Positions 9,861-64,000 of a DNA stretch of 64,000 nucleotides are shown here, one piece after another. The first letter of the stretch is position 1. Each line of letters opens with the position of its first letter. This DNA is from an uncultured Peptococcaceae bacterium. GTDB lineage: Bacteria; Bacillota; Dehalobacteriia; UBA4068. A model generated the notes under the pieces. That model was given only the letters and a program-made list of their open reading frames with translations. It did no database searches and was not told the DNA's origin. A program made the translations under genes and the position numbers. Location of the stretch: NCBI GenBank assembly GCA_949289995.1, contig CASEQE010000009.1, forward strand, positions 5,706-69,705. Reading direction: 5' to 3'.

Positions 9861-9983
9861 ACCGCCGTGTTTTACAAAAGGTATAGCATGCGGAAAAATA
9901 GGCCATAATAGCAGCAGTTTGGCAGGAAATGGCAGAAATAAAAGCGAATAACTTTGGGCACGGCAAAAGGCGGTGAAGCAACA

Positions 9984-48234: not shown

Positions 48235-48258
48235 ACCGCTATCTCCTTTTGCAATATT

Positions 48259-48927: not shown

Positions 48928-49101
48928 ATGAAGCTCCTCCACTTTGGCTCTGGCGCTTTCGCAATGGTTAACGCCAGCAAACAAGCAAGCGATACCGATT
49001 TTTTTATTATATCAAGCTTGAAAGTTTTTGGCAACATATCTCTAAGGAATTCAACATTGTATACCCTCTACCATCATTTTCAATGTTACACAAATACAAT
49101 T

Positions 49102-49136
49102 GAACGGCGGTTTTTCTTTCAGAAAAACCGCCGTTC
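49102..49136 (-). terminator. Rho-independent terminator after sigF
   Basis: GAACGGCGGTTTTT-loop-AAAAACCGCCGTTC. Confidence 0.6.
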
Positions 49137-49147
49137 ATGCATAAGGA

Positions 49148-50377: not shown

Positions 50378-50730
50378 TATTTTTCCTCCTTGGCAAAATG
50401 CCCGCCAATCGGCAATTCCACTTCGATGAGGCGGTCTAATCCAGAAGCGGTTAGCAAGCGGTAAACTTGATCGTTGGCATGACGAATAATTATTCTTCCG
50501 CCTGTTAAAGCCAATTCCCGATAGCGGCCCATCAATACCCCTAGCCCAGAACTATCGATAAAGCTAACTCGCGAAAAATCCAACATCAGATAGCGAGTAC
50601 GGCTTTTGGCTAAGGCAGCCTTCAATTTATCTTTAAACTGATCCGCGGCGGACAAATCCAATTCGCCGCTTACCGCGACCACCAACCAATCCCGTCCTTG
50701 ATATTTTTTGCTTTCCGTTTGAAAATCCAT
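50377..50730 (-). CDS. spoIIAA: Anti-sigma F factor antagonist (STAS domain)
   Basis: STAS fold with phosphorylatable Ser context (DSSGLGVL). Start at MDFQTESKK after GGAGG. Confidence 0.85.
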   Translation of the reverse strand: MDFQTESKKYQGRDWLVVAVSGELDLSAADQFKDKLKAALAKSRTRYLMLDFSRVSFIDSSGLGVLMGRYRELALTGGRIIIRHANDQVYRLLTASGLDRLIEVELPIGGHFAKEEK

Positions 50731-50757
50731 AACGTCCTCCTGGTCTTTCGCTTTTCC

Positions 50758-50795
50758 CAAGATTCATTCTTGCCCGTTCCATGTCTTTCCTGCCG
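50758..50795 (-). promoter_or_regulatory. Putative sigma-H-type promoter for the spoIIA operon
   Basis: Minus strand has AGGAAAG followed about 18 nt later by GAAT, loosely matching RNAGGAWWT-N-RNNGAATWW. The spacing is non-ideal. Confidence 0.2.
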
Positions 50796-51064
50796 TAAAA
50801 AAACAGAAATAAAAGCAAAAATTTGCTAGTTTTGTCCCATTTTTGCTATATTTTTATAAACAGTATTTGGTTTCTTCGCATTTATTTGCCGAGGATAAAT
50901 TCGGCCGAAACAAGCAAGATATATAAGACCGCCGCCATTAAAAAATGGTATATGGCGAAAGCAGGTAAAACGTTTGCCGGCCGTTTTGCCATTGAGGGTT
51001 ATGTAATTTTTGCCATAATCCTAAAAAATTTTGCGGCGGAAAATAAATTGAAAGGAGGAAACCT

Positions 51065-52141
51065 TTGTATACGAAAAAATACGCAATAAACAAATTGCAC
51101 GCTGAAAAAATTTGCGCCTTGTTTTTGGCGTTAGCTTTGACGTTGGCCGGATGGTCGATGCCAGCTGTTGCCGCCGATGGCGCAATGCCTCACGTTTATG
51201 TAGGCGGACAATCCATCAGTATTTTTCTGCACAATCAGGGCGTCACCGTAGTGGGTTTTGCGCCAGTAATCACGGCAGACGGACAAGAAGTCAATCCTGC
51301 GGTAGATGCGGGATTGCAAATGGGCGATTATATTAGTGAGATCAACGGTAAAACAATTAACAGCCAGCAGCAACTGACGGAAATCATTAGCCAATGGACG
51401 GCGGAAGATCCGCCGCTGGAGCTGCTTTACAGCCGCAACGGCGAACGGGATGTCGCCTGGGTAACGCCGGTCTTTTGCAGCCAAAATCAATGTTATCGTA
51501 TCGGCTTATATGTGCGGGATAATACCGCCGGTATTGGTACGTTAACCTTTTATGAACCTCAAAGCGGCGTTTACGGCGCTTTAGGACATCAGGTCAGCAA
51601 TGCGGATCAAGATAGCGGTGAAGATGCTTTAGGCTCTATCGGTAGAGCGCCTATTTCGGGGATACGTATCGGTAAAGCCGGTTCCCCCGGTGAAAAAATG
51701 GGCGTATTCATCGCCGAGCCTACCGGCGTAGTGCAAGAAAACACGGTATACGGCCTATTTGGTATTTTATACCAAACGCCCCAACCGCTTTATTATTCCC
51801 AAACCATGCCGTTGGCACAAGTAAACGAAGTCACCACAGGCCCCGCCGAATTATTGACGGTAATCGACGGGGAAGAAATTGAATCCTTTACCATTAATAT
51901 TGTCAAAATTAACGCAAATTATAAGTCCAGCGGCAAAGGTATGGTCATAGAAATTACCGACGATGAATTGATTGAAAAAACTGGCGGTATCATCCAGGGT
52001 ATGTCTGGTTCGCCAATTATTCAAAACGGTAAGTTGGCCGGCGCAGTAAGCCATGTATTTGTCAACGATCCTTTGCACGGTTATGCCTGCTTTGCACAAT
52101 GGATGTGGGAAAAAGCCGAACCGTTAGAGAATGCGGCGTAA
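51065..52141 (+). CDS. spoIVB: SpoIVB peptidase (S55 serine peptidase with PDZ domain)
   Basis: Signal peptide, PDZ (GLQMGDYISEINGKTI) and catalytic GMSGSPI. Apparent TTG start after GGAGG. Upstream of spo0A, as in Bacillus. Confidence 0.85.
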   Translation: MYTKKYAINKLHAEKICALFLALALTLAGWSMPAVAADGAMPHVYVGGQSISIFLHNQGVTVVGFAPVITADGQEVNPAVDAGLQMGDYISEINGKTINSQQQLTEIISQWTAEDPPLELLYSRNGERDVAWVTPVFCSQNQCYRIGLYVRDNTAGIGTLTFYEPQSGVYGALGHQVSNADQDSGEDALGSIGRAPISGIRIGKAGSPGEKMGVFIAEPTGVVQENTVYGLFGILYQTPQPLYYSQTMPLAQVNEVTTGPAELLTVIDGEEIESFTINIVKINANYKSSGKGMVIEITDDELIEKTGGIIQGMSGSPIIQNGKLAGAVSHVFVNDPLHGYACFAQWMWEKAEPLENAA

Positions 52142-52146
52142 TCGCT

Positions 52147-52181
52147 AGCCGGAGCCATTTTGGCTCCGGCTTTTTCTTTTT
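52147..52181 (+). terminator. Rho-independent terminator after spoIVB
   Basis: AGCCGGAGCC-ATTTT-GGCTCCGGCT followed by TTTTTCTTTT. Confidence 0.8.
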
Positions 52182-52434
52182 GCGCAAAATTTTTATTATC
52201 AATAATTAGTCAAAATCTATCATATTCGACGAATTTTTTAAAGGAAAACTATTTTTTCACCACAAAACAGTTTAAAATAACGACAGTTTTCGAGTAGAAA
52301 AGTCGAAATTTAAATATATTTGTCGTAATAAAAACGGGGTATCTACGAATTATTCTGGAAGGATTTGGGATAGTTACACCGAAAAACTTAGAATATAAGG
52401 CCTTACAAAAAAAATAACTGAAAGCGGGGTACAT

Positions 52435-53202
52435 ATGGAGAAAATCATAAAAATATTAATCGTCGATGACGATAGAATCTTCGCTTCGGCATTAGAAGAA
52501 TATTTCTCCTCTTTAGATAACTATCAAGTATGCGCGAATGCAGAAAACGGACAAAAGGGCCTAGAGTTAATTGAAAAATATCATCCGGACGTGGTCATCT
52601 TGGATTTGGTTATGCCTCATTTGGATGGCATAGGCGTCCTCGAAGCTTTAAACTCCAATCCCTTATCCGATATGCCGCACATCATTTTTATCACTTCCTT
52701 TGCGCAAGCCAACTTAACCAAAAAGGCCATGGAACTAGGCGCAGCTTACTACATGATGAAACCTTTTGATTTAGATACCTTGGAAAAAAGAATACGCCAA
52801 ATTACCCATGTCAATGAAGCCGAAGTCATTACCGTGGGCAAAACAGCGAATATGGAAGTAGAAGTCACTCGAATCATTCACCAAATGGGCGTTCCAGCTC
52901 ATGTCAAAGGATATCAATACCTGCGTGACGCCATTTTATTGGTTACGAAAGAAGTCAATCTAATGGGCGCCGTAACTAAAGAATTATATCCGATGATTGC
53001 GGATAAATACAATACGACCGCCTCCAGAGTGGAACGGGCAATTCGCCACGCCATTGAATTGGCTTGGGATCGCGGTAATGTAGAAATGATGAATCGTTAT
53101 TTCGGATATACCATCAATATCGAAAGAGGAAAACCTACCAACTCGGAATTTATAGCGATGATCGCCGATAAACTGCGTATGGGCGATAAAATGGTTATGT
53201 AA
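52435..53202 (+). CDS. spo0A: Sporulation master response regulator Spo0A
   Basis: REC domain (ILIVDDD...[14 protein letters not shown]) plus the Spo0A_C DNA-binding domain ([14 protein letters not shown]). Confidence 0.95.
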
Positions 53203-53251
53203 AAAGCTTCGTTTTAACATATAATAGATGAATATTTTCGCATTGATCACC

Positions 53252-53303
53252 GCCGCTTTCTCTGCTATACTATATCGTATGGGAAAGCGGCTATATTATT
53301 TCT
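53252..53303 (+). terminator. Possible terminator after spo0A
   Basis: A 9-bp stem (GCCGCTTTC / GAAAGCGGC) with a 22-nt loop, followed by a T-rich tract. The long loop lowers confidence. Confidence 0.35.
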
Positions 53304-53331
53304 CCAAAAAAAAGGAAGAAGGATCGTCGGC

Positions 53332-54780
53332 ATGGATAAAAATCATTTAAGTTTATTATGCGATTACTACGAATTAACTATGAGCAACGGGTATTACGCC
53401 CATAATTTACATGAAAAAACCACCTACTTTGATCTATATTTTCGTCAGATACCTGATGGAGGAGGCTATGCAATCACAGCTGGTTTGCAGCAATTAATCG
53501 AATATATTGAAAATCTGCATTTTGATCAAGAAGATATTGCTTTTTTAAGACAAAAAAATATTTTTTCTAATGATTTTTTAAATTATTTGGCCAACTTTCA
53601 TTTCAGTGGTGATATTTATGCGATTCCTGAAGGAACTCCGGTATTTCCCGGTGAACCGTTGGTAATCGTCAAAGCACCCGCTGCCCAAGCTCAATTAATT
53701 GAAACCTATGCTTTACTTACGTTTAATCATCAATCCTTAATCGCCACCAAAGCCAATCGTATCGTGCGTGCTGCAAAAGGCCGCCCGGTGATGGAATTTG
53801 GTTCCCGCCGGGCACAAGGCGCGGACGCCGCCACTATCGGCGCGCGTGCCGCATATATCGGCGGCTGCGCCGCCACCGCTTGCACGCTCACCGACGCCAT
53901 CTATGGCGTACCAGCTAGCGGCACCATGGCCCATGCCTGGGTACAGATGTTTGAAAATGAATACGAGGCTTTTAAAGCCTATTGCCAAATCTATCCCCAC
54001 AACGCCACTTTATTGGTGGATACCTATAATACGCTAAAAAGCGGCGTACCCAATGCAATTCGCGTTTTTAAAGAAATTCTCTTGCCACAAGGTATTAAAA
54101 AATGCGCCATACGTTTGGACTCCGGAGATTTAGCCTTTCTGTCTCGTAGCGCCAGAAAAATGCTGGATGATGCCGGCCTGCCATTTTGCCAAATTGTGGC
54201 TTCAAATGCATTAGATGAATGGTTGATTCGTGATTTATTGGTACAAGGTGCACAAATTGACAGCTTTGGCGTAGGTGAAAAATTAATCACTGCTCGTAGT
54301 GAACCAGTTTTTGGCTGTATCTACAAATTGGTAGCTACAGAAGACGAAAGCGGCCAAATTATCCCCAAAATCAAAATCTCCGAAAACGTATCGAAAATTA
54401 CCACGCCCCACTTTAAAAAAGTATATCGTCTATATGAAAAAAACAGTGGCAAAGCAATTGCTGATCAGATTTGCGTATATGATGAAACCATAGATGAAAA
54501 TAAACCATTAGAAATTTTTGATCCCCTGGCTCCTTGGAAACGTAAAACTGTCAGCGATTTTACTGTAAAAGAATTGTTGGTTCCTATTTTTATTCATGGA
54601 AAAAAAGTATACCAACAGCCTTCTTTATCCCAAATCCAAGCTTATTGCAAGCAGCAAATTGATACGTTATGGGATGAAGTGAAACGTTTCGAATATCCCC
54701 ATCACTATTATGTGGATTTATCCCAAAAGTTATGGGATATTAAGCAAAAACTATTATATCAACAAACGCAACAAGCATAA
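53332..54780 (+). CDS. pncB: Nicotinate phosphoribosyltransferase
   Basis: 482 aa NAPRT family (YELTMSNGYY, MEFGSRRAQG, GTMAHAWVQMF). Confidence 0.85.
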   Translation: MDKNHLSLLCDYYELTMSNGYYAHNLHEKTTYFDLYFRQIPDGGGYAITAGLQQLIEYIENLHFDQEDIAFLRQKNIFSNDFLNYLANFHFSGDIYAIPEGTPVFPGEPLVIVKAPAAQAQLIETYALLTFNHQSLIATKANRIVRAAKGRPVMEFGSRRAQGADAATIGARAAYIGGCAATACTLTDAIYGVPASGTMAHAWVQMFENEYEAFKAYCQIYPHNATLLVDTYNTLKSGVPNAIRVFKEILLPQGIKKCAIRLDSGDLAFLSRSARKMLDDAGLPFCQIVASNALDEWLIRDLLVQGAQIDSFGVGEKLITARSEPVFGCIYKLVATEDESGQIIPKIKISENVSKITTPHFKKVYRLYEKNSGKAIADQICVYDETIDENKPLEIFDPLAPWKRKTVSDFTVKELLVPIFIHGKKVYQQPSLSQIQAYCKQQIDTLWDEVKRFEYPHHYYVDLSQKLWDIKQKLLYQQTQQA

Positions 54781-54888
54781 TTATACTATAAAACATATCC
54801 AATAAAGCTTTCATCCGCTTGCCAGTAAAAACCAGGCGCTACAGCCGCCACCTTCCCTATTCCCCCATCCGTTTGCTTCATAGTTCAG

Positions 54889-54950
54889 ACCGTTTTCCAA
54901 GACAAAGGCGGTATTACGTCTGTAAACCTCATGGAAAACGGTTTGTTTTA
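54889..54950 (+). terminator. Long-stem hairpin terminator after pncB
   Basis: An 11-bp stem (ACCGTTTTCCA / TGGAAAACGGT) with a structured loop, followed by TTGTTTTAT. Confidence 0.5.
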
Positions 54951-55073
54951 TCACCAGAATTAAGCGCGCAAGCCCTTTTGGTAATCCATGGATTTTACAG
55001 CAAAAAAAAGACATACTGGGAAAGCGGTTTCAAAAATATTGTATTTTCGATAACTAGACAAAAGGGAGAAAGA

Positions 55074-56030
55074 TTGAAAATAAAAAAGAGATATATTTTT
55101 CTGCCGTGTACTGCCATTTTGCTCCTTTTTATGTGGATAAATAATACAAGCCTATTTTGCGATAGTTCAGGTGAATATAGCTTTTTGGCACATCGAGGTT
55201 TAGCACAAAACTTTGACGTTTCAGAAGTAGAATGGGATACCAACACCGCTGCAATTATAGATGAACCCCAACACCCCTATTTGGAAAACACATTGGAATC
55301 CATGGAAATCGCCTTTGCCTATAACGCGCAATGCGTAGAATTAGATATACAATTAACCAAAGATGGTTACCTGGCAATTTTTCATGATTATGATTTAAGT
55401 ATGAGAACGGATGGAAAAGGATCGGTTTCTGATTGGACAATGGAGGAACCAAAACGATTGGATGTAGGATATGGATATACTGCCGATGGAGGAGAAACAT
55501 ATCCATTTCGTGGTAAAGGCGTTGGAGTCATGCCAGAACTGCAGGAGGTATTAGATGCTTTTCCAGATAAAGAACTATTGATTCATATGAATCATGGAGA
55601 TGTGAAAACGGCAGAAGCGCTATGGACATATTTGCAAAATATGTCTGACGAACGTCTACAGCAAATTGCGGTTTACGGTAATGACGAAGGATTAGATTAT
55701 TTAAGAGAACAATATGCAAATATAAGAGTATTATCTGCCGAACGCCTAAAAAAGGCTTTATTAAAATATGAATTACTAGGGTGGACAGGATATATCCCAA
55801 ATGAAATTCAAAATATGGAAATTCATATTCCTATAAAATATGCAAAATTCCTATGGAGATGGCCCAAAAAATTCGTTGCAAGAATGGCGTCGGTAAATAC
55901 GAAAGTGGTTGTCGTAGAAGGCAACGGAAAATGGTCGGAAGGATTTGATACAAAAGAGTCTCTTGAGAACATACCGGAAGGTTATTCGGGATATGTATGG
56001 ACAAATAGAATAGACTTAGTTACAGAATAA
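55074..56030 (+). CDS. Glycerophosphodiester phosphodiesterase-family protein, probable lipoprotein/secreted
   Basis: GDPD motifs (HRGLAQN..ENTLESM, VELDIQLTKDGYLAIFHD). Proposed TTG start at 55074 after GGGAGA. The in-frame stretch from 54819 is intergenic and contains the pncB terminator. Confidence 0.55.
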   Translation: MKIKKRYIFLPCTAILLLFMWINNTSLFCDSSGEYSFLAHRGLAQNFDVSEVEWDTNTAAIIDEPQHPYLENTLESMEIAFAYNAQCVELDIQLTKDGYLAIFHDYDLSMRTDGKGSVSDWTMEEPKRLDVGYGYTADGGETYPFRGKGVGVMPELQEVLDAFPDKELLIHMNHGDVKTAEALWTYLQNMSDERLQQIAVYGNDEGLDYLREQYANIRVLSAERLKKALLKYELLGWTGYIPNEIQNMEIHIPIKYAKFLWRWPKKFVARMASVNTKVVVVEGNGKWSEGFDTKESLENIPEGYSGYVWTNRIDLVTE

Positions 56031-56290
56031 CATTTTTCAGCCTCTTCGGGGTTGAGTGGGACAGAAACTTATTAAGGAGAAACGAAAAGCATTTTACATA
56101 ACAAACCATTCGTTACAAACCATTCGTTGGCAAAAGAACTGTAAATGATTTTAAATTGTCAAACGCATTCCCGAATAGTTTTAACATTCGAAAATGCGCA
56201 AGGCGTCGTGAATCGTATGGAGATCTTCCGTCTGGCGATAAACAAAACCGCAAAAGCCCGAAACTTTTAACATCAGACCTTGCATGCGAA

Positions 56291-56337
56291 AAAAGAACCG
56301 CAGCTTTGATACTTTATGATCAAAACTGCGGTTCTTT
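56291..56337. terminator. Bidirectional rho-independent terminator, ending tRNA-Sec transcription on the minus strand
   Basis: AAGAACCGCAG-loop-CTGCGGTTCTT, flanked by an A-run on the 5' side and a T-run on the 3' side. Confidence 0.7.
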
Positions 56338-56434
56338 TGGCGGAAGCGTGTGGGAATCGAACCCACCCAAGACGGGCGTACCGCCTCGCGTCGGATTTGA
56401 AGTCCGCGTCAGCCACCAGGCCAAATCCGCCCCC
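56338..56434 (-). tRNA. selC: tRNA-Sec (selenocysteine tRNA, anticodon UCA) candidate
   Basis: 97 nt. The 3' end ACGCTTCC-G-CCA is identical in form to the E. coli selC 3' end. 5-bp T-stem with GGTTCGATTCC. Anticodon loop CTTCAAA. 6-bp D-stem with a 4-nt D-loop. Long variable arm. 8-nt acceptor with two G·U pairs and one G×A mismatch. selA lies directly upstream. Confidence 0.65.
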
Positions 56435-56527
56435 ATAAAATATCCTATATAGAAACAAGCGGTAAAATCCCCTATTTATCCCATATGAAAGCTTTTCCGC
56501 CGCATAAAATTATCGAGAATCAACCGT

Positions 56528-57916
56528 TCATTCCACAGTACCGCAAATATGCTGCAAGGAAGCGGCAAAATCCTCCATATCATGGGCGCTTAGCGTCCGT
56601 GGATCGACAATAATCCGTTCTTTACGAATATAAACGATCGCCGGCGGCTCGCCTAAACGCAAAGCTTCGGCCAAATCGGCAGCATGAAAACGATTATGTT
56701 TTAACGACAGAGCATAACCAGGCAAACGCACTTGCGGTAGACTACCCCCGCCAACCTCCGTCTGAATTTGTTCCTCTTCAATCGTCAAACCGCGACAATT
56801 TGCCAACATCTTTCGGAGAAGCGTACACTTTTGCTGCAACTGTGACAAATCCTCTCCCAGCATAGCCAGCAAAGGGATTTCCATACATCGCCCCTGGCGG
56901 TATAACTGTAAAGTAGCGCTCAATGCCGCCAGAGCGAGCTTATCCGGACGCAATATCCGATATAACGGATTTTCTTGAATCGTTTGCAGCCATGTTTTTT
57001 TGCCCAAAATAATACCAGCCTGAGGACCGCCTAATAGCTTATCGCCGCTGATGGTGATCACGTCCGCCGTATGAACCATCTGGCGCAGCAAAGGTTCCTG
57101 ATCCGCCAACCAAGACGCCGCCGGATATAGACAACCGCTGCCCAAATCGGCCAATACAGGCAGGCCGCATGACTCGGCCAAAGCTTTTAACGCCTGCAAA
57201 TCCACAGACTGCACAAATCCTACCTGTTGGAAATTGCTTTGATGTACCCACAACAACAACGCAGTACGCTCGGTAATTTGACGCTGATAATCCTCCACAT
57301 AGGTTTTATTGGTACAGCCCACTTCGCGCAAAATAGCGCCGCTGCGGCAAATAATATCAGGAAGACGAAACGAACCGCCGATTTCTACCATCTGGCTACG
57401 CGAAATAATTACCTCGCCACCGCAAGCCAAAGCGTTTAAAGCTAAAAATACGGCGGCAGCATTATTGTTCACCACACAAGCATCCTCTGCGCCGCTTAAA
57501 TCGCATAACAACTCGATAATTTCTTGTCCCCGCCGGCTGCGTTTACCATTGACCAAATCCAATTCCAAATTACAATAGCCGGAAGCGCATTCCCGTATCG
57601 CCTCCAATGCAGCCTGGGCTAAAGGGGCACGCCCTAAATTGGTATGCAAAGGCACGCCTGTGGCGTTTAACACTTTACGCAAAGGCGGAATGGTCTTTCG
57701 TTTATAGATCTGTTGCGCTTTTGCCACTGCCAACGCCAATAGCTGGGATGAATCCAATGCCTGTTCCTGGCCCTGCAATAAATCCTGGCGCAACGAAGCT
57801 ACCGCTTCCCGGCAAGCTTCGCTAAGCAAAGCCGGATTACAAGCGCTGCCCATTTTTTGCTGCACTTGCAGCATAGTCTTATCTACGCCGGGTAAATCTC
57901 GTAAATTCATACGCAT
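56528..57916 (-). CDS. selA: L-seryl-tRNA(Sec) selenium transferase
   Basis: Strong similarity to E. coli SelA motifs (LGRAPL, GAEDACVVNNNAAAV, VEIGGSFR, SGDKLLGGPQAGII with PLP-Lys, RPDK). The start may be the third codon (ATG 57910), which has a better RBS. Confidence 0.9.
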   Translation of the reverse strand: MRMNLRDLPGVDKTMLQVQQKMGSACNPALLSEACREAVASLRQDLLQGQEQALDSSQLLALAVAKAQQIYKRKTIPPLRKVLNATGVPLHTNLGRAPLAQAALEAIRECASGYCNLELDLVNGKRSRRGQEIIELLCDLSGAEDACVVNNNAAAVFLALNALACGGEVIISRSQMVEIGGSFRLPDIICRSGAILREVGCTNKTYVEDYQRQITERTALLLWVHQSNFQQVGFVQSVDLQALKALAESCGLPVLADLGSGCLYPAASWLADQEPLLRQMVHTADVITISGDKLLGGPQAGIILGKKTWLQTIQENPLYRILRPDKLALAALSATLQLYRQGRCMEIPLLAMLGEDLSQLQQKCTLLRKMLANCRGLTIEEEQIQTEVGGGSLPQVRLPGYALSLKHNRFHAADLAEALRLGEPPAIVYIRKERIIVDPRTLSAHDMEDFAASLQHICGTVE

Positions 57917-57958
57917 CCCTATACTTCGGTAATCATCTTACAATTGACCGACCTGCCG

Positions 57959-58357
57959 TTATACATCCTCTACCACGCCGTCTTGCAATTGTTGGTTTTG
58001 CGATCCTGCATAAGGATCCTCTCTTTCCATAGAGCGCCACAAGCGACCAAACAGATAGATTTCCGCCTGTAATACATTGGGATATGGATTCAGCACGACG
58101 CCTTTGCCATCGATAACCGTCACTTGTTCCGGATCGCTATCAGGACGAAAACGGCCGGACAAATGAATGGTATAGCCCATGCCTTGATAAGTTCCGCTAT
58201 TTTCATCTGCGCTTTCCTCAAGGGTTTGGGTAAAAATCGGCTTTTTATAATCCCGAAACACACGATTATAATCGTTAATCACTAAAGTACCCCAAGTGAT
58301 AACTGCTAAAAACAGTAATCCAACTACAGATAAAGCAACAATTTTTCCTTTTTTCAT
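57959..58357 (-). CDS. Hypothetical N-terminally membrane-anchored protein
   Basis: 132 aa with one N-terminal TM helix and RBS AAGGAGG. No recognised domain. Confidence 0.45.
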   Translation of the reverse strand: MKKGKIVALSVVGLLFLAVITWGTLVINDYNRVFRDYKKPIFTQTLEESADENSGTYQGMGYTIHLSGRFRPDSDPEQVTVIDGKGVVLNPYPNVLQAEIYLFGRLWRSMEREDPYAGSQNQQLQDGVVEDV

Positions 58358-58395
58358 AAAACCTCCTTAGGGTAATGCCCGCAACATATCGATTT

Positions 58396-59601
58396 TCATT
58401 CGCCGTCCGCAACTTTCGCGATATGTTTAACGGTTTTTTTACGGCAATACAAGCCAACGCAAATCAGCGACGTTAACGGTATGGTCAACAAAATGCCAAA
58501 GCTACCGGCCAAAGCCTGCAATATCGCTACTACGATCATTTCTAAATTTAGTAATTCCAATATATTATCGTTATAGGCCGCCATCAACAGCGTCAAACAT
58601 AAATCGCTGCCAATATAAGCCAACACCAAGGTATTGGCCATGGTTCCCATAATATCCCGACCAATATTCATGCCGGAAGCGATCAAAGCCTTGGGCGAAA
58701 TATCCGGAGAATTGTGTTTCAACTCGTTTAAAGCGGAAGCCAGATCCATCGCCACATCCATGATAGCGCCCATAGCGCCAATAATAATAGCGGCAAAGAC
58801 AATGCCATGTAAATCGATTGGATGATTCGGATCCAGCAATTGTAAATACAAAGTATCCTCATCAATCATGCCCGTCAACCGTAACACTTTATCCATAATG
58901 ACGGTGATAATACCGGCGGCCGCCACGCCGGCGAAGCAACCGGCGCCGGCAGCGAAGCTTTTTGCAGAAGCTCCGTTAATTAACAACATCGTGCTAATGA
59001 TAACATACACGCAAGTTACCACCGAGCCTAGATAAATGTTTTCTCCGTTCAGCACGGCAGGCACAAAAACCGAAAATACAGACAAGCAGGTAAATACTAA
59101 CGCAATAAGGGTGTGTAATCCTTTCCAGCGGCCAAAAAATAGCAAACATAAAGCAAATATCACCGCCAAAATGATCAAAGCGTCGCTACGCAAATACTCC
59201 AACATCGTCCACTCTGCATCAGAACTGCCATCGGCATTAGGCGAAATCAAGACTTTATCGCCGACGCTTACTTCTTCCAAAACCGGATAATATGTAGGAT
59301 CAACAATTTGGCAAGCGACAACTTCCGCTCCCTTATCTTCGCCGCTCAAGACCTGCGCTCGGAAATAAACGTATTTGATGGTTTGCACCGTATCAGAGCT
59401 GATAGGAATATCCGTGGATCGGCTGGCGACAATCGTTTCAACCTGCGCTTTTACCGTATTTTGGCTATATACCGACTGTCGCTCGCCCTCTTGATGCGCC
59501 CATAGGCTGCCGGCCCATATATATGCAATAGAAAAAATAATGGTTAAAACAAAAATCAACAAATTTTTTTTATTTAAAGGTTGTATATCTCTTTTTTTCA
59601 T
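58396..59601 (-). CDS. YibE/F family membrane protein
   Basis: N-terminal TM plus an extracytoplasmic domain, then a 6-7 TM YibE/F-like core. Start set at MKKRDIQ after GGGAG. Confidence 0.55.
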   Translation of the reverse strand: MKKRDIQPLNKKNLLIFVLTIIFSIAYIWAGSLWAHQEGERQSVYSQNTVKAQVETIVASRSTDIPISSDTVQTIKYVYFRAQVLSGEDKGAEVVACQIVDPTYYPVLEEVSVGDKVLISPNADGSSDAEWTMLEYLRSDALIILAVIFALCLLFFGRWKGLHTLIALVFTCLSVFSVFVPAVLNGENIYLGSVVTCVYVIISTMLLINGASAKSFAAGAGCFAGVAAAGIITVIMDKVLRLTGMIDEDTLYLQLLDPNHPIDLHGIVFAAIIIGAMGAIMDVAMDLASALNELKHNSPDISPKALIASGMNIGRDIMGTMANTLVLAYIGSDLCLTLLMAAYNDNILELLNLEMIVVAILQALAGSFGILLTIPLTSLICVGLYCRKKTVKHIAKVADGE

Positions 59602-59624
59602 CAAACTAGCTCCCGTAGATTTGT

Positions 59625-60824
59625 TCAATTTGGCTGATAATGTTTAGCCAACCCTCCTTCCCCGGTTTCTCGATATTTGCTAAACAAATCTCGACCGGTT
59701 TCATACATGGTTTTCACCACGGTATCAAAAGAAATTTTTCGTGCATAGGTAAGAAAATTGGCCAATGATAAAGCGTTGATAGCGCGCATAGCCGCCACGG
59801 CATTTCGTTCGATACAAGGAATTTGTACCAATCCGGCCACGGGATCGCAAGTTAACCCCAAATGGTGTTCCAAAGCTACTTCGGCGGCATATTCAATTTG
59901 ATCCCAATCCATATCGTGCAAAGCGGCTAAAGCCGCCGCCGCCATGGAACAAGCGCTGCCGATTTCCGCCTGACAACCACATTCCGCCCCGCTGATGGAA
60001 GCATTGGTCTTGATTATATTGCCGATCAATCCAGCCGTCGCCAAAGCGCGCAAAATATCTTGATCCGTAAACCCCCGTTTATCCTGCATATATAATAGTA
60101 CGGATGGCAATACGCCGCAGGAACCGCAGGTCGGCGCGGTAACAATTTGGCCGCCGCTAGCGTTTTCTTCCGCCGCAGCAAAGGCGTAGGCGCAAACCAT
60201 ACGACATTCCCTGGTTTCGCTGGTCTCATCCATGTGCTTTTGTTGATATAAAAAACGGGCTTTGCGCAATACATGCAAGCCGCCGGCCAATTCCCCTTCC
60301 GCCGACAAACCGGCATAAATCTCATTTTTCATCGCCAACCAAATATCGGCTAAAAACAGCCATATTTCCGGCCCCTCCATTTGCTCCACATATTGCCAAC
60401 ATGTCAAAGCTTTATCGTGACAATACTCTTTAAGCTCCGTAAAACGGCGATGGGGGTATACGTCTGCCGCCGTTTCCCGTTCTTCCCCTTGGATAAGGAT
60501 TTTTCCTCCACCCACGCTTTCCACACGACATGTGCCGCAAACCGTACCATTGGTCAACGCCAATAAATCCATGGTATTCGGGTGGGCTACGGGCGTATGG
60601 GTATCAAAAACGATTGCGCAATCCTTGGGAGCAAAAACCTTTTGAATCGCCTGATCGGTTAAATGTCCCCGTCCAGTTTTCGCCAAAGAGCCATATAGCA
60701 CCGCCTGAAAGGAATGGGCATGAGGAAAACGTTCTTTGAAAATGCGGGCTGCTTTTTCCGGCCCCATGGTATGGGAACTGGAAGGTCCTCTGCCAATACG
60801 ATACAGTTCTCTTAGGGATTCCAT
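59625..60824 (-). CDS. sdaA: L-serine dehydratase, Fe-S dependent, single-chain (beta-alpha fused)
   Basis: N-terminal beta-type motif IGRGPSSSHTMGP and the alpha-type Cys cluster (PTCGSCG...ECGCQAEIGSACS). Start MESLREL after GGGAGG. Confidence 0.8.
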   Translation of the reverse strand: MESLRELYRIGRGPSSSHTMGPEKAARIFKERFPHAHSFQAVLYGSLAKTGRGHLTDQAIQKVFAPKDCAIVFDTHTPVAHPNTMDLLALTNGTVCGTCRVESVGGGKILIQGEERETAADVYPHRRFTELKEYCHDKALTCWQYVEQMEGPEIWLFLADIWLAMKNEIYAGLSAEGELAGGLHVLRKARFLYQQKHMDETSETRECRMVCAYAFAAAEENASGGQIVTAPTCGSCGVLPSVLLYMQDKRGFTDQDILRALATAGLIGNIIKTNASISGAECGCQAEIGSACSMAAAALAALHDMDWDQIEYAAEVALEHHLGLTCDPVAGLVQIPCIERNAVAAMRAINALSLANFLTYARKISFDTVVKTMYETGRDLFSKYRETGEGGLAKHYQPN

Positions 60825-60947
60825 GTTCCGCCTCCCAATCATTCTTTACCGCATCAACGCCATAGATATTATAACACAGAGGCGGCAAATTCAAAATCTT
60901 TTTCCTGCCATTCGTCTATTATTCAAAACAAAAAATTAATCAAGATT

Positions 60948-60975
60948 TTGCATTACTGTAAGAATGTGGTATAAT
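60948..60975 (+). promoter_or_regulatory. Near-consensus sigma-A promoter with extended -10
   Basis: TTGCAT, 16-nt spacer, TGgTATAAT. It lies about 65 nt upstream of the DUF2156 gene start. Confidence 0.55.
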
Positions 60976-61039
60976 ATAGCGAATGGTAAATCATCTTTGT
61001 TTTTCTATTTATTTTATACGCTACCGATAGGAGCCATAT

Positions 61040-61930
61040 ATGCAATATCGACCCATTACCCTTGCGGACAAACCGCTTTTCGATCAATTTCTATCCCTAC
61101 GCAGACATTCGTTAATCACCTATAACTTCGCTAATTTATTTCTCTGGCGCCATTGGGACCGTTTTTCCTGGCAAATATTGAACGATGCTCTGTGCATCAA
61201 AAGCGAATACAACAATCGTTCCATGGCTTTACCCCCTATTTGCGCCAGCGACCAAGGTATTTTAGCAACCACCGAACGGCTCATTCGTCAATATCAAGCC
61301 AACGGCCTACCCTTTATTATGACCGAGGTTTCTCAGGATATGTGGGATTTATTTGCACAAGCCTGGCCAGGACGTTTTCAAGCGGAAGCCCATCGCAGCG
61401 GCGCCAACTATATATACCGGCGGGAAGATTTGGCCAATCTAAAAGGCAAACGCTACGACTCCAAACGGAATCACATCCACCGCTTTGAAAAAGAATATCC
61501 AAACTATCAATTTGTTCCTTTATGCCAAGATTTGGTAGCCTTATGCAAACAAAGGCAGACGGAATGGCGTTACAGTCATGATCCCAACGACCAACAACTT
61601 ATCCTGGAAGAACAGGGGATCATGGAAGCTTTGGATCATTTTCAAGAATTAAATCTAAGCGGCGCCTGTTTATTGATCGACGATCATGTGGAAGGTTTTA
61701 CAATCGGCGACCGGTTAGATGACCAAACTTGGGCGGTGCATATTGAAAAAGGCAATATGAATATCCATGGTTCCTATCAAATCGTCAACCAACTGTACGC
61801 TCGAGATTATTGCCAGAACGTGCTTTACGTCAACCGTGCGGAAGATATGGGCGACCTTGGATTGCGCAAATCTAAACTAAGTTATCATCCATATCGTTTG
61901 GAAAACAAATATTTACTTTGCTTGCAATAG
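61040..61930 (+). CDS. DUF2156-family protein (standalone homolog of the aminoacyl-phosphatidylglycerol synthase C-terminal domain)
   Basis: 296 aa and soluble. Resembles the MprF/LPG-synthase C-terminal (aa-tRNA-dependent transferase, GNAT-like) domain. That assignment rests on my recollection of the family and has not been checked against a profile. Confidence 0.45.
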   Translation: MQYRPITLADKPLFDQFLSLRRHSLITYNFANLFLWRHWDRFSWQILNDALCIKSEYNNRSMALPPICASDQGILATTERLIRQYQANGLPFIMTEVSQDMWDLFAQAWPGRFQAEAHRSGANYIYRREDLANLKGKRYDSKRNHIHRFEKEYPNYQFVPLCQDLVALCKQRQTEWRYSHDPNDQQLILEEQGIMEALDHFQELNLSGACLLIDDHVEGFTIGDRLDDQTWAVHIEKGNMNIHGSYQIVNQLYARDYCQNVLYVNRAEDMGDLGLRKSKLSYHPYRLENKYLLCLQ

Positions 61931-61962
61931 ATGGCAAACAGCATAATCGTTATGAGGATATT

Positions 61963-62463
61963 ATGGGTAAGCGCGACTATATAACCATTATCGTCACCTT
62001 AATCTTGCTTTTAATCGGTACGCAGATTTTTCATGTGCTGCGCTATAATCAATTACGCCAAGAAATTGTCGGCGAATTCTGCGAACAATGCGCCGGTCTA
62101 TCCCAAGTTCTCGCAGATATCGCGTCGACCGGCATGGAAAATACGCCCCTGCCTCAGAAAATTGCCGACGGGCAAAGAATCGCCTATACGCTAACTGCAT
62201 TGGTCAATCATTTAGGGACAAGCGATCTAGAAACGGCGCAAATAAGCGAATTAACCATGTTCATTTGGCAAATTCCAACATACTTGGCGCAAAGCGCCCC
62301 GGGAAACGATTATTGGCAAAATATTGCCGTTTTATCGAATCTTTTCGATGATTTTGCCTCCTGCAGCCATGAAAAAGACGTAGCTGCCGCGTTATATCAA
62401 TCCATGCATGATGAAGCGACGCTTAGCGCGGTTTGCGCCGATATATTAAATTATGGAGAATAA
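61963..62463 (+). CDS. Hypothetical protein with a single N-terminal TM helix
   Basis: About 166 aa starting at ATG 61963 with a GAGGA RBS. It is 30 nt after the DUF2156 stop and overlaps the GNAT start by 11 nt. Confidence 0.45.
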   Translation: MGKRDYITIIVTLILLLIGTQIFHVLRYNQLRQEIVGEFCEQCAGLSQVLADIASTGMENTPLPQKIADGQRIAYTLTALVNHLGTSDLETAQISELTMFIWQIPTYLAQSAPGNDYWQNIAVLSNLFDDFASCSHEKDVAAALYQSMHDEATLSAVCADILNYGE

Positions 62464-63343
62464 ACGTACGCCCATCCGTATCGGCTATGCCGCCGCCCAG
62501 GATAAACAGGCGGTTATGGCATTATGGGCAAAAGATTTTGAAAGCTATGAACCATATTATAGCTGGTACTTCTCTTACGTATACCGGCCGGAACGCACGC
62601 TGGTAGCTTGGACTGGCAATCGTTTGGCCGCTTGCGTACAAATCGCCCCCTATACCATATCTTTTCCCCAGGGGCCCCGGCCAGCAGCCTATCTGGTAGG
62701 CGTAATTACCGAGCCCGCCCTGCGCGGCCAGGGTATCGCTAGACGGCTTTTGCTTTATACATTAGCCCGTTTGCAACAGCAGGGATATACGGCAGCATTA
62801 TTGTATACCGATATTCCTCAATTCTACCGTCCATTGGGTTTCCGCTATGCCTATGCCCTGCGACGTATTTCGTTACCGGCGTGCCGGCAAGATACTGCCG
62901 CCGGTTGGCAAAAAGCTACCGACGTTCATCCATCGATTCAACAATGCGCCGCCATATATCGTTGCATGACAGCCCCTTGGCGCGGGTATATCATCCGCAA
63001 CGATACCAACTGGCGGACGTTGTTGGGAGAACTGCAATGCGACCAAGGCGTCATATGGATTTTGCCGCAACAAGCTTACGTTTTGGCTTATCCCGAGGAC
63101 GACGATTTGATTATAAGAGAAATCGGCTATACGAACCAAGAATCCCTACAAGCTGCGTTATCTCTCTGTAGCCGCTTAGCGTTTGACGGCGGTTTTCGTC
63201 ATTGCCGGTGGCTAGCTCCTTTGACGGCGCCGCTACCTCAGGATACGCTAGGGAAAACCGTTCCCTTCGTGATGGCCAAATCTTTAACCGACGTCCCTTA
63301 TTTGCAACTATCCGCAGCCAACTGGATTAATGAATACACCTAA
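62453..63343 (+). CDS. GNAT-family N-acetyltransferase with a C-terminal extension
   Basis: Acetyl-CoA-binding motif (VGVITEPALRGQGIARRLL) in the N-terminal about 170 aa, plus about 120 aa of extra C-terminal domain. Confidence 0.6.
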   Translation: MENKRTPIRIGYAAAQDKQAVMALWAKDFESYEPYYSWYFSYVYRPERTLVAWTGNRLAACVQIAPYTISFPQGPRPAAYLVGVITEPALRGQGIARRLLLYTLARLQQQGYTAALLYTDIPQFYRPLGFRYAYALRRISLPACRQDTAAGWQKATDVHPSIQQCAAIYRCMTAPWRGYIIRNDTNWRTLLGELQCDQGVIWILPQQAYVLAYPEDDDLIIREIGYTNQESLQAALSLCSRLAFDGGFRHCRWLAPLTAPLPQDTLGKTVPFVMAKSLTDVPYLQLSAANWINEYT

Positions 63344-63359
63344 AAAGGAGACGCATATC

Positions 63360-64000
63360 ATGAAACAATATCGCCGGGGCGATGAAAATCTAGCTTTTTT
63401 GCTACGCTATGAAAATATTGCTTGGTATGAAGCGGGCAGCGTCCGCATCTTAGACCGGCGAATCTATCCGACAAAAAAAGAATTCGTTGTTTGCCACAAA
63501 TATCAAGAGGTAGCCCAGGCCATTGCGGATATGGTAACCCAAAGCGCGGGTCCATATTACGCCGCCGCCATGGGCATGGCCCTGGCGGCTTGGCAATGCC
63601 GTGAGAGCGCCGATCCCTTGGGATATTTAACGCAAGCCGCATATACGTTAAGCCATGCCCGTCCCACCACCAGCGTACGTATGGAGGCGGTAACCCAAGG
63701 CTGCTTGCGCGCCGCTGGGCAAGCATTGGCAGCCGGCCGCCCGCTGGATCAAGCCATCTTCGCTTATTCTCTGGATATGCTAGAAGCCAGATACCGCCGT
63801 ATCGCCCAAACCGCCGTCTACTTGGTAGATCTTTTCCCACAAAAAGGTTGCATTATGACCCAATGTTTCGCCGAAACTATTGTTGGCGCCATGTTGCGGG
63901 AAGCAGATGAAAGAGGCTATGATATTTCCCTAATCTGTCCGGAAACACGGCCCTATTTGCAGGGAGCCAGATTAACCGCTTCCGTGGCTTGCGATCAAGG
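63360..64000 (+). CDS. eIF-2B alpha/beta/delta-like family protein (MtnA / ribose-1,5-bisphosphate isomerase family), 3' end outside the window
   Basis: The frame is open to the window end. CPETRPYLQGARLTA matches the MtnA CETRPVLQGSRLTA block, and GCIMTQCFAE aligns with RIMTICNAGS. The N-terminal RGAPAIG block is divergent (QSAGPYYAAAMG). Confidence 0.55.
   Translation, partial: MKQYRRGDENLAFLLRYENIAWYEAGSVRILDRRIYPTKKEFVVCHKYQEVAQAIADMVTQSAGPYYAAAMGMALAAWQCRESADPLGYLTQAAYTLSHARPTTSVRMEAVTQGCLRAAGQALAAGRPLDQAIFAYSLDMLEARYRRIAQTAVYLVDLFPQKGCIMTQCFAETIVGAMLREADERGYDISLICPETRPYLQGARLTASVACDQ

Follow-up and report, generated by a model that had tools for sequence, protein, structure and literature searches.

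Free-standing bacterial DUF2156 proteins are a large family, which clustering at 50% identity divides into at least 4,000 groups and which has members in Bacteroides, Parabacteroides, Veillonella and Helicobacter. One crystal structure dates back to 2006, but the family has no established biochemical function, and the functional data are indirect only (PMC10700544). According to that report, the active site of 2HQY contains acetyl-CoA, and deletion of the Helicobacter pylori homologue (HPB8_1270) leads to a partial loss of RNase J acetylation at K323, K397, K511 and K649. In fungi, free-standing DUF2156 enzymes have Gly-tRNA as a substrate (PMC8913301), and a positively charged helix is a feature common to aminoacyl-tRNA (aa-tRNA) transferases (PMC6103681; PMC7334510). 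Here we describe a member of this family encoded in a 64,000-nucleotide stretch of DNA (hereafter, the window), where it is the first of three intact open reading frames, ORF1, ORF2 and ORF3. A preliminary description had grouped the three as a triad, composed of a soluble aa-tRNA-dependent transferase, a membrane anchor and an acetyltransferase.

ORF1 (61040..61930, + strand; 296 amino acids) is a DUF2156 double-GNAT transferase of the BT_3689/2HQY type. As had been proposed, it is made up of the DUF2156 domain alone, without a flippase or transmembrane part, and the orphan ORF2 is the sole source of a membrane segment beside it. The Pfam profile PF09924 (LPG_synthase_C) matched ORF1 with an E-value of 1.3e-46 (159.5 bits against a cutoff of 27.5), and residues 27-293 spanned positions 10-297 of its 298, essentially the full length. 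In the PDB, 2HQY was matched over residues 3-295 (E 2.5e-48), and a profile of 41 sequences from the ORF1 clade matched the same entry with an E-value of 2.5e-103. This profile found only 2HQY and no MprF domain of known structure even at E <= 1, and two fragment searches at E <= 10 likewise returned only 2HQY, leaving no sequence match by which MprF catalytic residues could be placed on ORF1. The AF2 model of ORF1 (pLDDT 95.6) has a tandem GNAT fold, for which Foldseek gave 2HQY as the closest structure (TM 0.93), then MprF domains (0.64-0.69), FemX (0.60) and Sbb17/Sba18 (0.56), with acyl-CoA tandem GNATs (0.32-0.49) below these aa-tRNA transferase folds. The likeness to MprF catalytic domains noted in the preliminary description therefore stands at the level of fold and Pfam family only, and ORF1 belongs to the free-standing BT_3689/2HQY clade.

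The ORF1 family comprises 4054 cluster representatives at E <= 1e-30, and the best 150 of these are nearly all 287-314 amino acids long. The dN/dS of ORF1 is 0.19, measured against the locus L006. No record was returned by an exact-sequence lookup, and a genome scan using peptide words from the single ORF1 sequence confirmed no relative; an alignment-based genome scan with the C-terminal signature of ORF1 recovered at least 592 genomic loci. This signature, N265-R-x-x-D-x-G-x-x-G-x-R-x-x-K-x-S-Y-x-P284 (codons 61832..61891, + strand), is composed of invariant or nearly invariant columns of the family alignment (A1). Between GNAT halves I and II lies a basic segment, residues 132-153 (ANLKGKRYDSKRNHIHRFEKEY; codons 61433..61498, + strand), which the model folds into a helix at residues 137-152. 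Across the 41 sequences K142 and N144 are invariant, R143 and H145 are nearly so, and the segment has a median of 5 lysines or arginines versus 1 aspartate or glutamate, while the median pI of the whole proteins is 6.0. Alignment and model together make this segment a candidate alpha(+) tRNA-binding helix.

ORF3 (62453..63343, + strand; 296 amino acids) is an Eis-family acetyl-CoA N-acetyltransferase (COG4552, a family built of Acetyltransf_9, Acetyltransf_17 and SCP2_2) that has lost its SCP2 domain by internal deletion and has kept its C-terminal tail. Pfam assigned it to Acetyltransf_9 (E 3.5e-21), and its family profile matched Eis-type structures from Bacillus anthracis (3N7Z, 4.8e-24) and Mycobacterium tuberculosis (Mtb; 2.5e-6). 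The model (pLDDT 92.7) contains two alpha/beta domains, and the best 50 Foldseek matches are all Eis-family proteins (TMq 0.66-0.76 over about 290-305 aligned columns). The extra acyltransferase-fold domain that had been reported for this protein is present, although it is better placed as the central, second GNAT-like domain of the Eis family, as modelled, than as a C-terminal addition. Relative to homologues of 375-389 amino acids, ORF3 is missing about 90 residues that correspond to the SCP2 region; the alignment (A2) places this deletion internally, 347-residue intermediates exist, and Pfam gave no SCP2_2 match. Acetyltransf_17 falls under threshold in ORF3 and above threshold in the 389-residue relatives.

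The expected catalytic elements of an Eis enzyme can also be recognized. The CoA pyrophosphate-binding P-loop of GNAT motif A, R91-G-Q-G-I-A96 (codons 62723..62740, + strand), aligns with the R-x-x-G loops of Eis-family structures, R91 and G94 being invariant in A2 and G94 also in a further alignment (A3). Y125 (codon 62825..62827, + strand), invariant in both alignments, lines up with the tyrosine of the FYRxxGY/W motif in 3N7Z, 2HV2, 2I00, 4MY0 and 2OZG; it is the predicted general acid, equivalent to Y126 of Mtb Eis, for which this role is described (PMC4964394). In Eis the C-terminal residue extends into the active site (PMC4964394), with the terminal carboxylate as a remote base. The corresponding tail of ORF3, NWINEYT (codons 63320..63340, + strand), is retained despite the SCP2 deletion and is common to the 347- and 389-residue relatives, with E294 invariant. 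The dN/dS of ORF3 is 0.18.

The three genes are driven by a sigma-A (sigma-70) type promoter with an extended -10 element (60947..60975, + strand), which had been proposed from inspection and was recovered by a consensus scan with a score of 10/12. It reads TTTGCA-17-TGgTATAAT, and the register TTGCAT-16-TGgTATAAT at 60948-60975 describes the same site. Promoter-like sites are not enriched in this region (10 versus 8.4 +/- 2.9 in shuffled sequences), and the assignment draws on a phylogenetic footprint: in the orthologous locus L001, whose ORF1 is 80% identical, the -35 block TTTTGCATT and the extended -10 block GAATGTGGTATAATATAGCG are unchanged, whereas the spacer and flanks have diverged. 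A Shine-Dalgarno sequence, GGAG (61030..61033, + strand), lies 6 nucleotides upstream of the ORF1 ATG and is kept in both L001 and L006. An Rfam search revealed no leader RNA or riboswitch, its one sub-threshold match being to an sRNA on the opposite strand (25 bits against a gathering score of 80).

Downstream, a gene of the S-methyl-5-thioribose-1-phosphate isomerase family, mtnA (63361..64000, + strand; cut by the window end), begins 17 nucleotides past the ORF3 stop codon with its own AAGGAG, and a scan of the interval found no terminator-like site. The assignment comes from its orthologue, which scores 308 bits against the NF004326 cutoff of 271. Rather than being an unrelated flank, as first thought, mtnA is probably co-transcribed with ORF1-ORF3. 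It follows the pair only in the window, L001 and L006, and in L001 the same-strand run continues as mtnA-coaX-birA; these genes are lineage-specific operon company outside the conserved module.

For ORF2 (61963..62463, + strand; 166 amino acids) the most probable start is the ATG at 61963, which is preceded by GAGGA and is also the start in L006, in place of a TTG at 61918. With this start ORF2 follows ORF1 by 32 nucleotides; the overlap of the last two genes stands, at 11 nucleotides, and probably couples the translation of ORF3 to that of ORF2. A limited test identifies ORF2 as a real gene, as its dN/dS is 0.235, its other frames are rich in stops, and it is intact in two strains. As described previously, it has a single hydrophobic segment (residues 7-25, Kyte-Doolittle 2.33), a helix followed by about 140 further residues. 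It matched nothing in Pfam, NCBIfam or the PDB, a weak similarity to the WalK N-terminus (E 0.05) being noise, and its sole relative among 5.8 billion protein clusters is a protein of the same species at 95% identity (P0063). Foreign DNA was ruled out by composition, since the GC content of 0.449 is typical of the window. ORF2 is missing from L001, where the orthologues of ORF1 and ORF3 lie 90 nucleotides apart, and from every other locus compared, and the same junction in other lineages holds unrelated inserts. ORF2 is a recent insertion, confined to this species, that separates the pair and lies outside the conserved module, and the triad is not conserved because ORF2 is found only in its own species.

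The two enzymes flanking this insertion, by contrast, are coupled across two phyla, which bears out the functional link between the DUF2156 and GNAT genes that had been suspected. Of 80 loci drawn from Bacteroidota and Bacillota, about 72% have an Eis-type GNAT immediately after the DUF2156 gene. When the neighbours in 87 DUF2156 loci were clustered, 60 loci contained an Eis-type GNAT, which in 58 of these 60 followed immediately in the same orientation (median gap 32 nucleotides), and every other neighbour occurred in at most 13 of the 87. By tblastn, the downstream Eis-type gene was found in 32 of 34 informative loci of Bacteroidota, 11 of 15 of Clostridia and other Bacillota, and 10 of 22 of Negativicutes. 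About a quarter of loci have no adjacent Eis-type gene, so DUF2156 proteins can act alone; divergent GNATs hidden in these loci were ruled out, the downstream genes encoding aminotransferases, LarA, a PBP, LeuA and an HTH protein. The genes flanking the pair are wholly different from lineage to lineage. Several were considered as core parts and rejected as clade-restricted, each occurring in at most 13 loci: lrgAB, pta-ackA and cdaA in Bacteroides, purL in Selenomonadaceae, DUF1934-argS in some Negativicutes, and a class-Ic aminoacyl-tRNA synthetase. In the closest Clostridia clade lgt is oriented divergently from the pair; this arrangement was counted in six Clostridia lineages, and in three Bacteroidales loci lgt is near the pair. 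Its position is the one hint of phosphatidylglycerol or another glycerolipid as acceptor.

The two activities are also joined in single polypeptides. A scan of ten long family members identified seven independent DUF2156-Eis fusions, with the domains arranged as in the operon; one (P0144) is present on four contigs, three of them listed, from different sequencing runs. Two further fusions, each on one contig, join DUF2156 to a RimJ/L-like Acetyltransf_3 domain (P0060) and, once, to an M18 aminopeptidase (P0224). As a recurrent neighbour the M18 aminopeptidase was rejected, only one having been found, 4.4 kb away at one locus. Together, these observations indicate that what is conserved is a cytoplasmic module of two acyl-transfer enzymes and not a triad. 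The DUF2156-Eis pair is an undescribed, widespread module across gut anaerobes, in agreement with the earlier remark that the locus represents no known named pathway.

What such a module might do depends on the donor used by ORF1. Our main reading, to which we assign a probability of roughly 0.4, is that aminoacyl transfer by ORF1 is followed by N-acetylation by ORF3. [quoted passage not shown] ORF3 would then use acetyl-CoA to N-acetylate the newly added free amine, which would neutralise it and stabilise the product. The modelled fold, ranking MprF, FemX and Sbb17/Sba18 over acyl-CoA tandem GNATs, favours an aa-tRNA donor, as do the conservation of the K-R-N-H helix in otherwise acidic proteins and the precedent of fungal free-standing DUF2156 enzymes that use Gly-tRNA (PMC8913301). 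Coupling of DUF2156 to N-acetyltransferases of two subfamilies (Eis-type and Acetyltransf_3) fits a product with a free alpha-amine, and the single aminopeptidase fusion fits it as well. The aminoacyl-tRNA synthetase neighbours (argS, GlxRS) are weak evidence, as they reflect clade-specific synteny. Donor specificity could have changed, however, because the ORF1 clade has no detectable sequence link to the solved MprF domains. We also propose, more tentatively, that an undescribed two-step pathway is common to Bacteroidales, many Clostridia and some Negativicutes, sometimes as one fused enzyme: DUF2156 would divert aa-tRNA to the aminoacylation of a cellular acceptor, and the Eis-type enzyme would N-acetylate the product. 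In a still more unusual variant, ORF1 would acetylate aa-tRNA or another RNA end, so that a tRNA-type helix and the acetyl-CoA reported for 2HQY would no longer be at odds.

The same features can be read as a pair of acetyltransferases, a possibility that we regard as doubtful but serious, and over which aminoacylation followed by N-acetylation is slightly favoured. ORF1 would use acetyl-CoA or another acyl-CoA, like its BT_3689 and HPB8_1270 relatives, next to an Eis-type ORF3, and the two would modify two sites of one substrate or overlapping protein lysines, N-termini or polyamine-like amines. The acetyl-CoA of 2HQY and the RNase J effect in H. pylori (PMC10700544) point in this direction, as does the close match of ORF1 to 2HQY against its distant one to MprF. 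The invariant S281-Y282 in the last helix of GNAT II could provide the general acid of a GNAT, numerous amines and proteins serve as Eis substrates (PMC4964394, PMC5799202), and in Bacteroides the pair adjoins pta-ackA and lrgAB, genes of acetyl-CoA and pyruvate overflow. The H. pylori effect, however, is partial and indirect, and deletions of rimI and pta-ackA affect the same lysines (PMC10700544). Moreover, no acyl-CoA tandem GNAT comes as close to ORF1 in fold as the aa-tRNA transferases do, its conserved basic helix has no obvious role with acetyl-CoA, and repeated coupling to acetyltransferases of different subfamilies would be less economical than complementary chemistry.

An unlikely sub-case of aminoacylation followed by N-acetylation specifies a protein N-terminus as the acceptor: DUF2156 would add a residue there, as L/F-transferase and ATE1 do, and the new terminus would be N-alpha-acetylated by the Eis-type enzyme. 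The clade of aa-tRNA-dependent GNATs also includes the L/F- and R-transferases (PMC6103681, PMC2922099), Mycobacterium smegmatis Eis acetylates peptide N-termini (PMC4964394), and the RimJ/L-like and aminopeptidase fusions and the H. pylori protein acetylation phenotype (PMC10700544) would agree; all of this is purely circumstantial, however, the two fusions each come from a single contig, and the neighbourhoods examined revealed no ClpS or degron link. Least probable is the original triad, in which ORF2 would anchor soluble DUF2156 and GNAT enzymes at the membrane to (amino)acylate a lipid such as phosphatidylglycerol, since its support, namely a real gene that overlaps ORF3, one strong hydrophobic helix and nothing further for an anchor, and the lgt gene next to the pair in the closest Clostridia clade, which encodes a phosphatidylglycerol-using enzyme, is outweighed by the confinement of ORF2 to its own species, its absence from L001 and every other locus, the unrelated inserts elsewhere and the fusions that link DUF2156 straight to GNAT.

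The coupling and fusion to an Eis-type acetyltransferase provide the first concrete pathway hypothesis for free-standing DUF2156 proteins. If ORF1 is an aminoacyl transferase, tRNA-dependent aminoacylation in abundant gut anaerobes would not be limited to lipid modification of the MprF type, and if both proposed steps occur, major gut bacteria would make lipids, metabolites or protein termini of a new, N-acetyl-aminoacylated class. If acetyl-CoA is instead the donor, part of the Pfam "lysyl-PG synthase" family would be mis-named, and annotations such as 'phosphatidylglycerol lysyltransferase domain-containing protein' would mislead.

Among known systems, ORF1 most resembles BT_3689 of Bacteroides thetaiotaomicron (2HQY) and H. 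pylori HPB8_1270, which are likewise about 300 amino acids long, with two GNAT halves and no other domain. ORF1 and 2HQY are 33% identical over the Foldseek structural alignment and have the invariant motifs in common, and most Bacteroides loci fetched for BT_3689-type homologues have an Eis-type gene directly downstream. ORF1 differs in coming from a spore-forming, Clostridia-like genome and in having a partner GNAT without SCP2. The C-terminal domains of MprF and other aminoacyl-phosphatidylglycerol synthases (4V34-4V36, 5VRV, 6LV0, 7DUW) share PF09924, the tandem GNAT fold and a basic helix between the halves, but they are 10-16% identical to ORF1, and that protein has no flippase and is partnered by an acetyltransferase, not a hydrolase.

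Fungal ErgS, a Gly-tRNA:ergosterol glycyltransferase that is described together with ErdS, is free-standing and without a membrane domain, like ORF1, and illustrates that a DUF2156 domain needs no further part to function as an aa-tRNA-dependent enzyme (PMC8913301, PMC7334510). By description, ErgS differs in being eukaryotic, in using a sterol acceptor and in being paired with the hydrolase ErdH, not with an N-acetyltransferase. The Eis enzymes (Mtb Eis, B. anthracis 3N7Z, E. faecalis 2HV2/2I00) share with ORF3 the R-x-x-G-x-A loop, the catalytic tyrosine, and the order of N-terminal catalytic GNAT, central GNAT-like domain and C-terminal tail. Unlike them, ORF3 has SCP2 deleted and carries a distinctive N-terminal motif, LW-x-x-x-FE-x-x-EP-Y/F-x-x-WYF, and its type is coupled or fused to DUF2156, an arrangement undescribed for characterised Eis enzymes. 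Finally, VlmA, Sbb17/Sba18 and FemX (TM 0.56-0.61 to ORF1) are soluble tandem-GNAT aa-tRNA-dependent transferases that act on small molecules or peptidoglycan precursors; they reside in biosynthetic or cell-wall clusters, whereas the DUF2156-Eis pair is found in housekeeping surroundings that vary by lineage.

The region at 60843-64000 opens with a 197-nt AT-rich intergenic stretch (GC 0.315), followed by four genes on the same strand; no Rfam family is present in it. The promoter proposed upstream of the first gene in the preliminary description is a genuine sequence match, reading TTTGCA-17-TATAAT with a TG extension at 60947-60975 (+) and scoring 10/12 against the consensus. Because consensus matches in the region are not enriched over shuffled sequences (10 versus 8.4 +/- 2.9), we examined conservation of the promoter in L001, a locus whose DUF2156 gene is 80% identical. 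Both the -35 block TTTTGCATT and the block GAATGTGGTATAATATAGCG match exactly between the two loci, and the spacer and remaining intergenic sequence have diverged around them; this footprint provides good evidence that the predicted promoter is functional, with transcription predicted to begin about 7 nt past 60975. Gene calling in L001 also places a 36-aa ORF (9864-9974, minus strand) in the stretch that separates sdaA from the DUF2156 promoter region.

The DUF2156 gene (ORF1, 61040-61930) has GGAG 6 nt before its start. For the small membrane protein gene (ORF2), the most likely start is the ATG at 61963, which is preceded by GAGGA and is also the start called on a 99%-identical contig, rather than the TTG at 61918. 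The GNAT gene (ORF3, 62453-63343) begins within the final codons of ORF2 (attATGGAGAATAA) and lacks a Shine-Dalgarno sequence of its own. The operon had been described as ending there. However, an mtnA-family gene with AAGGAG ahead of it follows 17 nt past the ORF3 stop with no terminator-like site between them, and in L001 the same-strand run extends through mtnA-coaX-birA, where no convincing intergenic terminator was found. With the ORF2 start and the 3' end so corrected, the observation as a whole was confirmed. Further upstream, the genes of 47245-60842, assigned by synteny with L001, comprise spoIIAA-spoIIAB-sigF-like genes, a SpoIVB-type peptidase, spo0A, NAPRTase, selA, a YibE_F membrane protein and a fused-type L-serine dehydratase, indicating that the window derives from an endospore-forming Bacillota (Clostridia-like) genome.

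Comparison across genomes revealed that the conserved unit is not the three-gene set but the pair formed by the DUF2156 gene and an Eis-type GNAT gene, which is conserved very strongly. The order in L001 is sdaA, DUF2156, 90 nt, GNAT (297 aa), mtnA, coaX and birA. Orthologs of 43-48% identity sit in a wholly different neighborhood, where lgt lies divergently upstream and the downstream genes vary, and nevertheless have an Eis-type GNAT of 347-389 aa 15-71 nt after DUF2156. An alignment-based scan using one genome per species returned at least 592 loci, of which 80 were listed and analyzed. A tblastn search placed a same-strand Eis-type gene downstream of DUF2156 in 32 of the 34 Bacteroidota loci that were informative, 11 of 15 from Clostridia and other Bacillota, and 10 of 22 from Negativicutes (54 of about 75 informative loci overall, among the 80 listed); where this partner is missing, the downstream genes are unrelated. 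Unsupervised clustering of neighbors within 6 kb placed an Eis-type cluster in 60 of 87 loci, directly downstream in 58 of the 60 (median gap, 32 nt), and the next most frequent neighbor of DUF2156 occurs in only 13 loci. The proposed co-occurrence of all three genes is thus borne out for the two enzymes and not for ORF2.

Several other candidate partners were rejected as clade-specific synteny, including lrgA-lrgB, pta-ackA and cdaA in Bacteroides, purL in Selenomonadaceae, and DUF1934-argS in some Negativicutes. In 11-13 Bacteroides/Phocaeicola loci (for example L078 6900-9950, L029, L054 and L086), pta-ackA on the opposite strand is followed by lrgA-lrgB-DUF2156-Eis-type GNAT, the gap between the end of lrgB and DUF2156 being about 59 nt. 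In that group, the arrangement connects the pair with acetyl-CoA/pyruvate overflow genes. Three Negativicutes loci (L020, L031 and L033) carry same-strand DUF1934-argS after DUF2156, as do L013 and L015 at a greater distance; the Negativicutes loci of this kind have no Eis-type partner. In L033 (Pectinatus cerevisiiphilus), a class-Ic aminoacyl-tRNA synthetase of neighbor cluster c14 lies 659 nt upstream of DUF2156; the c14 member in L002 carries tRNA-synt_1c domains. L013 (DATMYQ010000236.1) is labeled 'Patescibacteria group bacterium', and this contig may be mis-binned, since its DUF2156 and DUF1934-argS (c15/c16) genes resemble those of Negativicutes.

The lgt gene encodes prolipoprotein diacylglyceryl transferase, which consumes phosphatidylglycerol. 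It is divergent to the pair at a distance of 109-164 nt in six Clostridia lineages whose other neighbors differ (all minus strand: L002 9040-9837, L004 9044-9838, L008 1182-1958, L010 4052-4888, L011 305-1048 and L012 7167-7892), and it lies 1.2-2.1 kb downstream on the opposite strand in three Bacteroidales loci (L044, L058 and L069). In the window, lgt is not adjacent to the pair. This proximity may hint at a phosphatidylglycerol/lipoprotein connection, or may be inherited synteny.

The two enzymes also occur as single polypeptides. When 1.84 billion representatives were scanned in full with HMMER, 4,054 DUF2156 family members were recovered at E <= 1e-30, and the best 150, as listed, are nearly all 287-314 aa. 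Seven of the ten longer members scanned combine an N-terminal DUF2156 with a C-terminal Eis-type GNAT. One of these, P0144, contains a complete Acetyltransf_9, Acetyltransf_17 and SCP2_2 set, and its ORF is present on four contigs (three shown) from different sequencing runs, so the fusion is not an assembly artifact. That the genes are adjacent in unrelated contexts in two phyla and have fused repeatedly argues strongly that the DUF2156 and Eis-type enzymes act together as one functional unit. Two further fusions were each found on one contig only. P0060 (L095 815-2224), a 469-aa ORF, joins an N-terminal DUF2156 to a RimJ/RimL-type GNAT (Acetyltransf_3), placing another acetyltransferase subfamily in the C-terminal position that the Eis-type domain occupies in the other fusions. 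P0224 (L094 4001-6205), a single ORF of 734 aa, joins DUF2156 to a C-terminal M18 (aspartyl) aminopeptidase, an arrangement reminiscent of the paired synthases and hydrolases of aminoacyl-lipid systems. Elsewhere, M18 genes do not recur as neighbors of DUF2156.

As anticipated, ORF1 matches PF09924 (LPG_synthase_C/DUF2156) from end to end in Pfam (E 1.3e-46). Its closest solved relative in the PDB is 2HQY (E 2.5e-48), the free-standing 'conserved hypothetical' BT_3689 of Bacteroides thetaiotaomicron. When a 41-sequence profile of the ORF1 clade was run against the PDB, 2HQY (2.5e-103) was the sole match at E <= 1 and no MprF domain was retrieved; ORF1 fragment queries likewise returned 2HQY alone, so the tie to MprF is invisible in sequence save through the broad Pfam model. 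The AlphaFold model of ORF1 (pLDDT 95.6) gave a TM score of 0.93 to 2HQY. The structural resemblance that had been proposed was also recovered, with TM scores of 0.64-0.69 for MprF catalytic domains, 0.60-0.61 for FemX and 0.56 for the aminoacyl-tRNA-dependent peptide synthases Sbb17 and Sba18, all ranking above acyl-CoA tandem GNATs (clavulanate CBG, VipF and Eis; 0.32-0.49). The 22-residue inter-GNAT segment is basic in every clade member (median 5 K/R versus 1 D/E) and has a conserved K-R-N-H core with K142 and N144 invariant; apart from it, the proteins are acidic (median pI 6.0). A further invariant cluster consists of E236/K237/N265/R266/D269/K279/S281/Y282. These data show ORF1 to be a DUF2156-family transferase with two GNAT halves; carrying every feature tested, it belongs to the BT_3689-type free-standing members of the family.

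The assignment of ORF3 as a GNAT was likewise supported by a Pfam match to Acetyltransf_9 and by its model (pLDDT 92.7), whose top 50 structure matches are all Eis family (TMq 0.66-0.76). Both the CoA loop (R91-G-Q-G-I-A) and Tyr125 of ORF3 show conservation, and in alignments they correspond to residues of Eis-family structures whose roles in Eis have been described (PMC4964394). ORF3 shows all the catalytic hallmarks of an Eis-type N-acetyltransferase that uses acetyl-CoA. Three length classes can be distinguished among its relatives (about 290-300, 347 and 375-389 aa), and alignment with the longer ones shows that ORF3 has lost the SCP2 domain by deletion of some 90 internal residues while the extreme C-terminal tail, NWINEYT, is kept. 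The domain is lost stepwise, from 389 aa (L002 10902-12071) through 347 aa (P0069 and P0075) to about 296 aa in the window (62453-63343). These last seven residues are kept throughout, which suggests that the tail matters more than the domain carrying it.

Two readings of the donor used by ORF1 are nearly balanced. In the reading that we slightly favor, with a probability of roughly 0.4, ORF1 would aminoacylate from aminoacyl-tRNA and the Eis-type enzyme would then N-acetylate. The fold ranking of the ORF1 model is consistent with this, as is the conserved, predicted basic helix between the GNAT halves of otherwise acidic proteins, a feature common to aminoacyl-tRNA transferases (PMC6103681; PMC7334510); in fungi, a free-standing DUF2156 enzyme uses Gly-tRNA (PMC8913301). 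The partner is an N-acetyltransferase from one of two subfamilies or, in a single case, an aminopeptidase, and this would make chemical sense if the product of ORF1 bears a new free amine. A precedent for an N-acylated aminoacyl-lipid is N-succinyl-Lys-PG of B. subtilis, whose enzyme is not known (PMC6103681). Alternatively, and only slightly less probably, both members could be acetyltransferases, with ORF1 using acetyl-CoA: the active site of 2HQY is stated to contain acetyl-CoA, and four lysines of RNase J are reported to lose part of their acetylation when the H. pylori homolog HPB8_1270 is deleted (PMC10700544). However, the same lysines respond to rimI and pta-ackA deletions (PMC10700544), making this genetic evidence indirect. 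The remaining probability falls to other acceptor-specific or unforeseen variants.

ORF2 gave no family or structure match, and its one strong hydrophobic helix spans residues 7-25. Its single relative among 5.8 billion protein clusters is the 95%-identical copy from the same species. ORF2 is probably a real gene, of native base composition, with a dN/dS of 0.235 between two strains (10 synonymous and 9 non-synonymous differences) and alternative frames full of stops. Enlarged junctions in other lineages hold inserts unlike ORF2 and unlike one another (DUF3990-like, AbiEii-like and an opposite-strand TonB-like gene), so the DUF2156-GNAT junction evidently tolerates insertions, ORF2 being one such. 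DUF3990-like small proteins lie there in some Bacteroidales (L028 1076-2600, L034 8885-9518 and L035 8885-9534), and L028 additionally has an AbiEii-like nucleotidyltransferase inserted; the junction seems to be a recurrent insertion point. Given that L001 has no gene at this position, the membrane-anchored triad envisaged in the preliminary description is highly improbable; of that interpretation the functional pair survives, with the ORF1 donor left between the two readings.

Neither the DUF2156-Eis coupling nor the fusions were described in the literature reached by full-text searches on DUF2156/BT_3689. The function of bacterial free-standing DUF2156 proteins, a specialist-level question, is made directly testable by a defined partner and natural fusions. 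With respect to known systems, ORF1 is not an MprF: the flippase domain is absent, as had been proposed, and the fold is MprF-like, but a sequence-level link to MprF catalytic domains is lacking. ORF3 departs from the Eis family in one defining feature, the SCP2 domain, and is best called an SCP2-less Eis variant. Together, these are known enzyme kinds assembled into an undescribed but widespread module that is not peculiar to the window.
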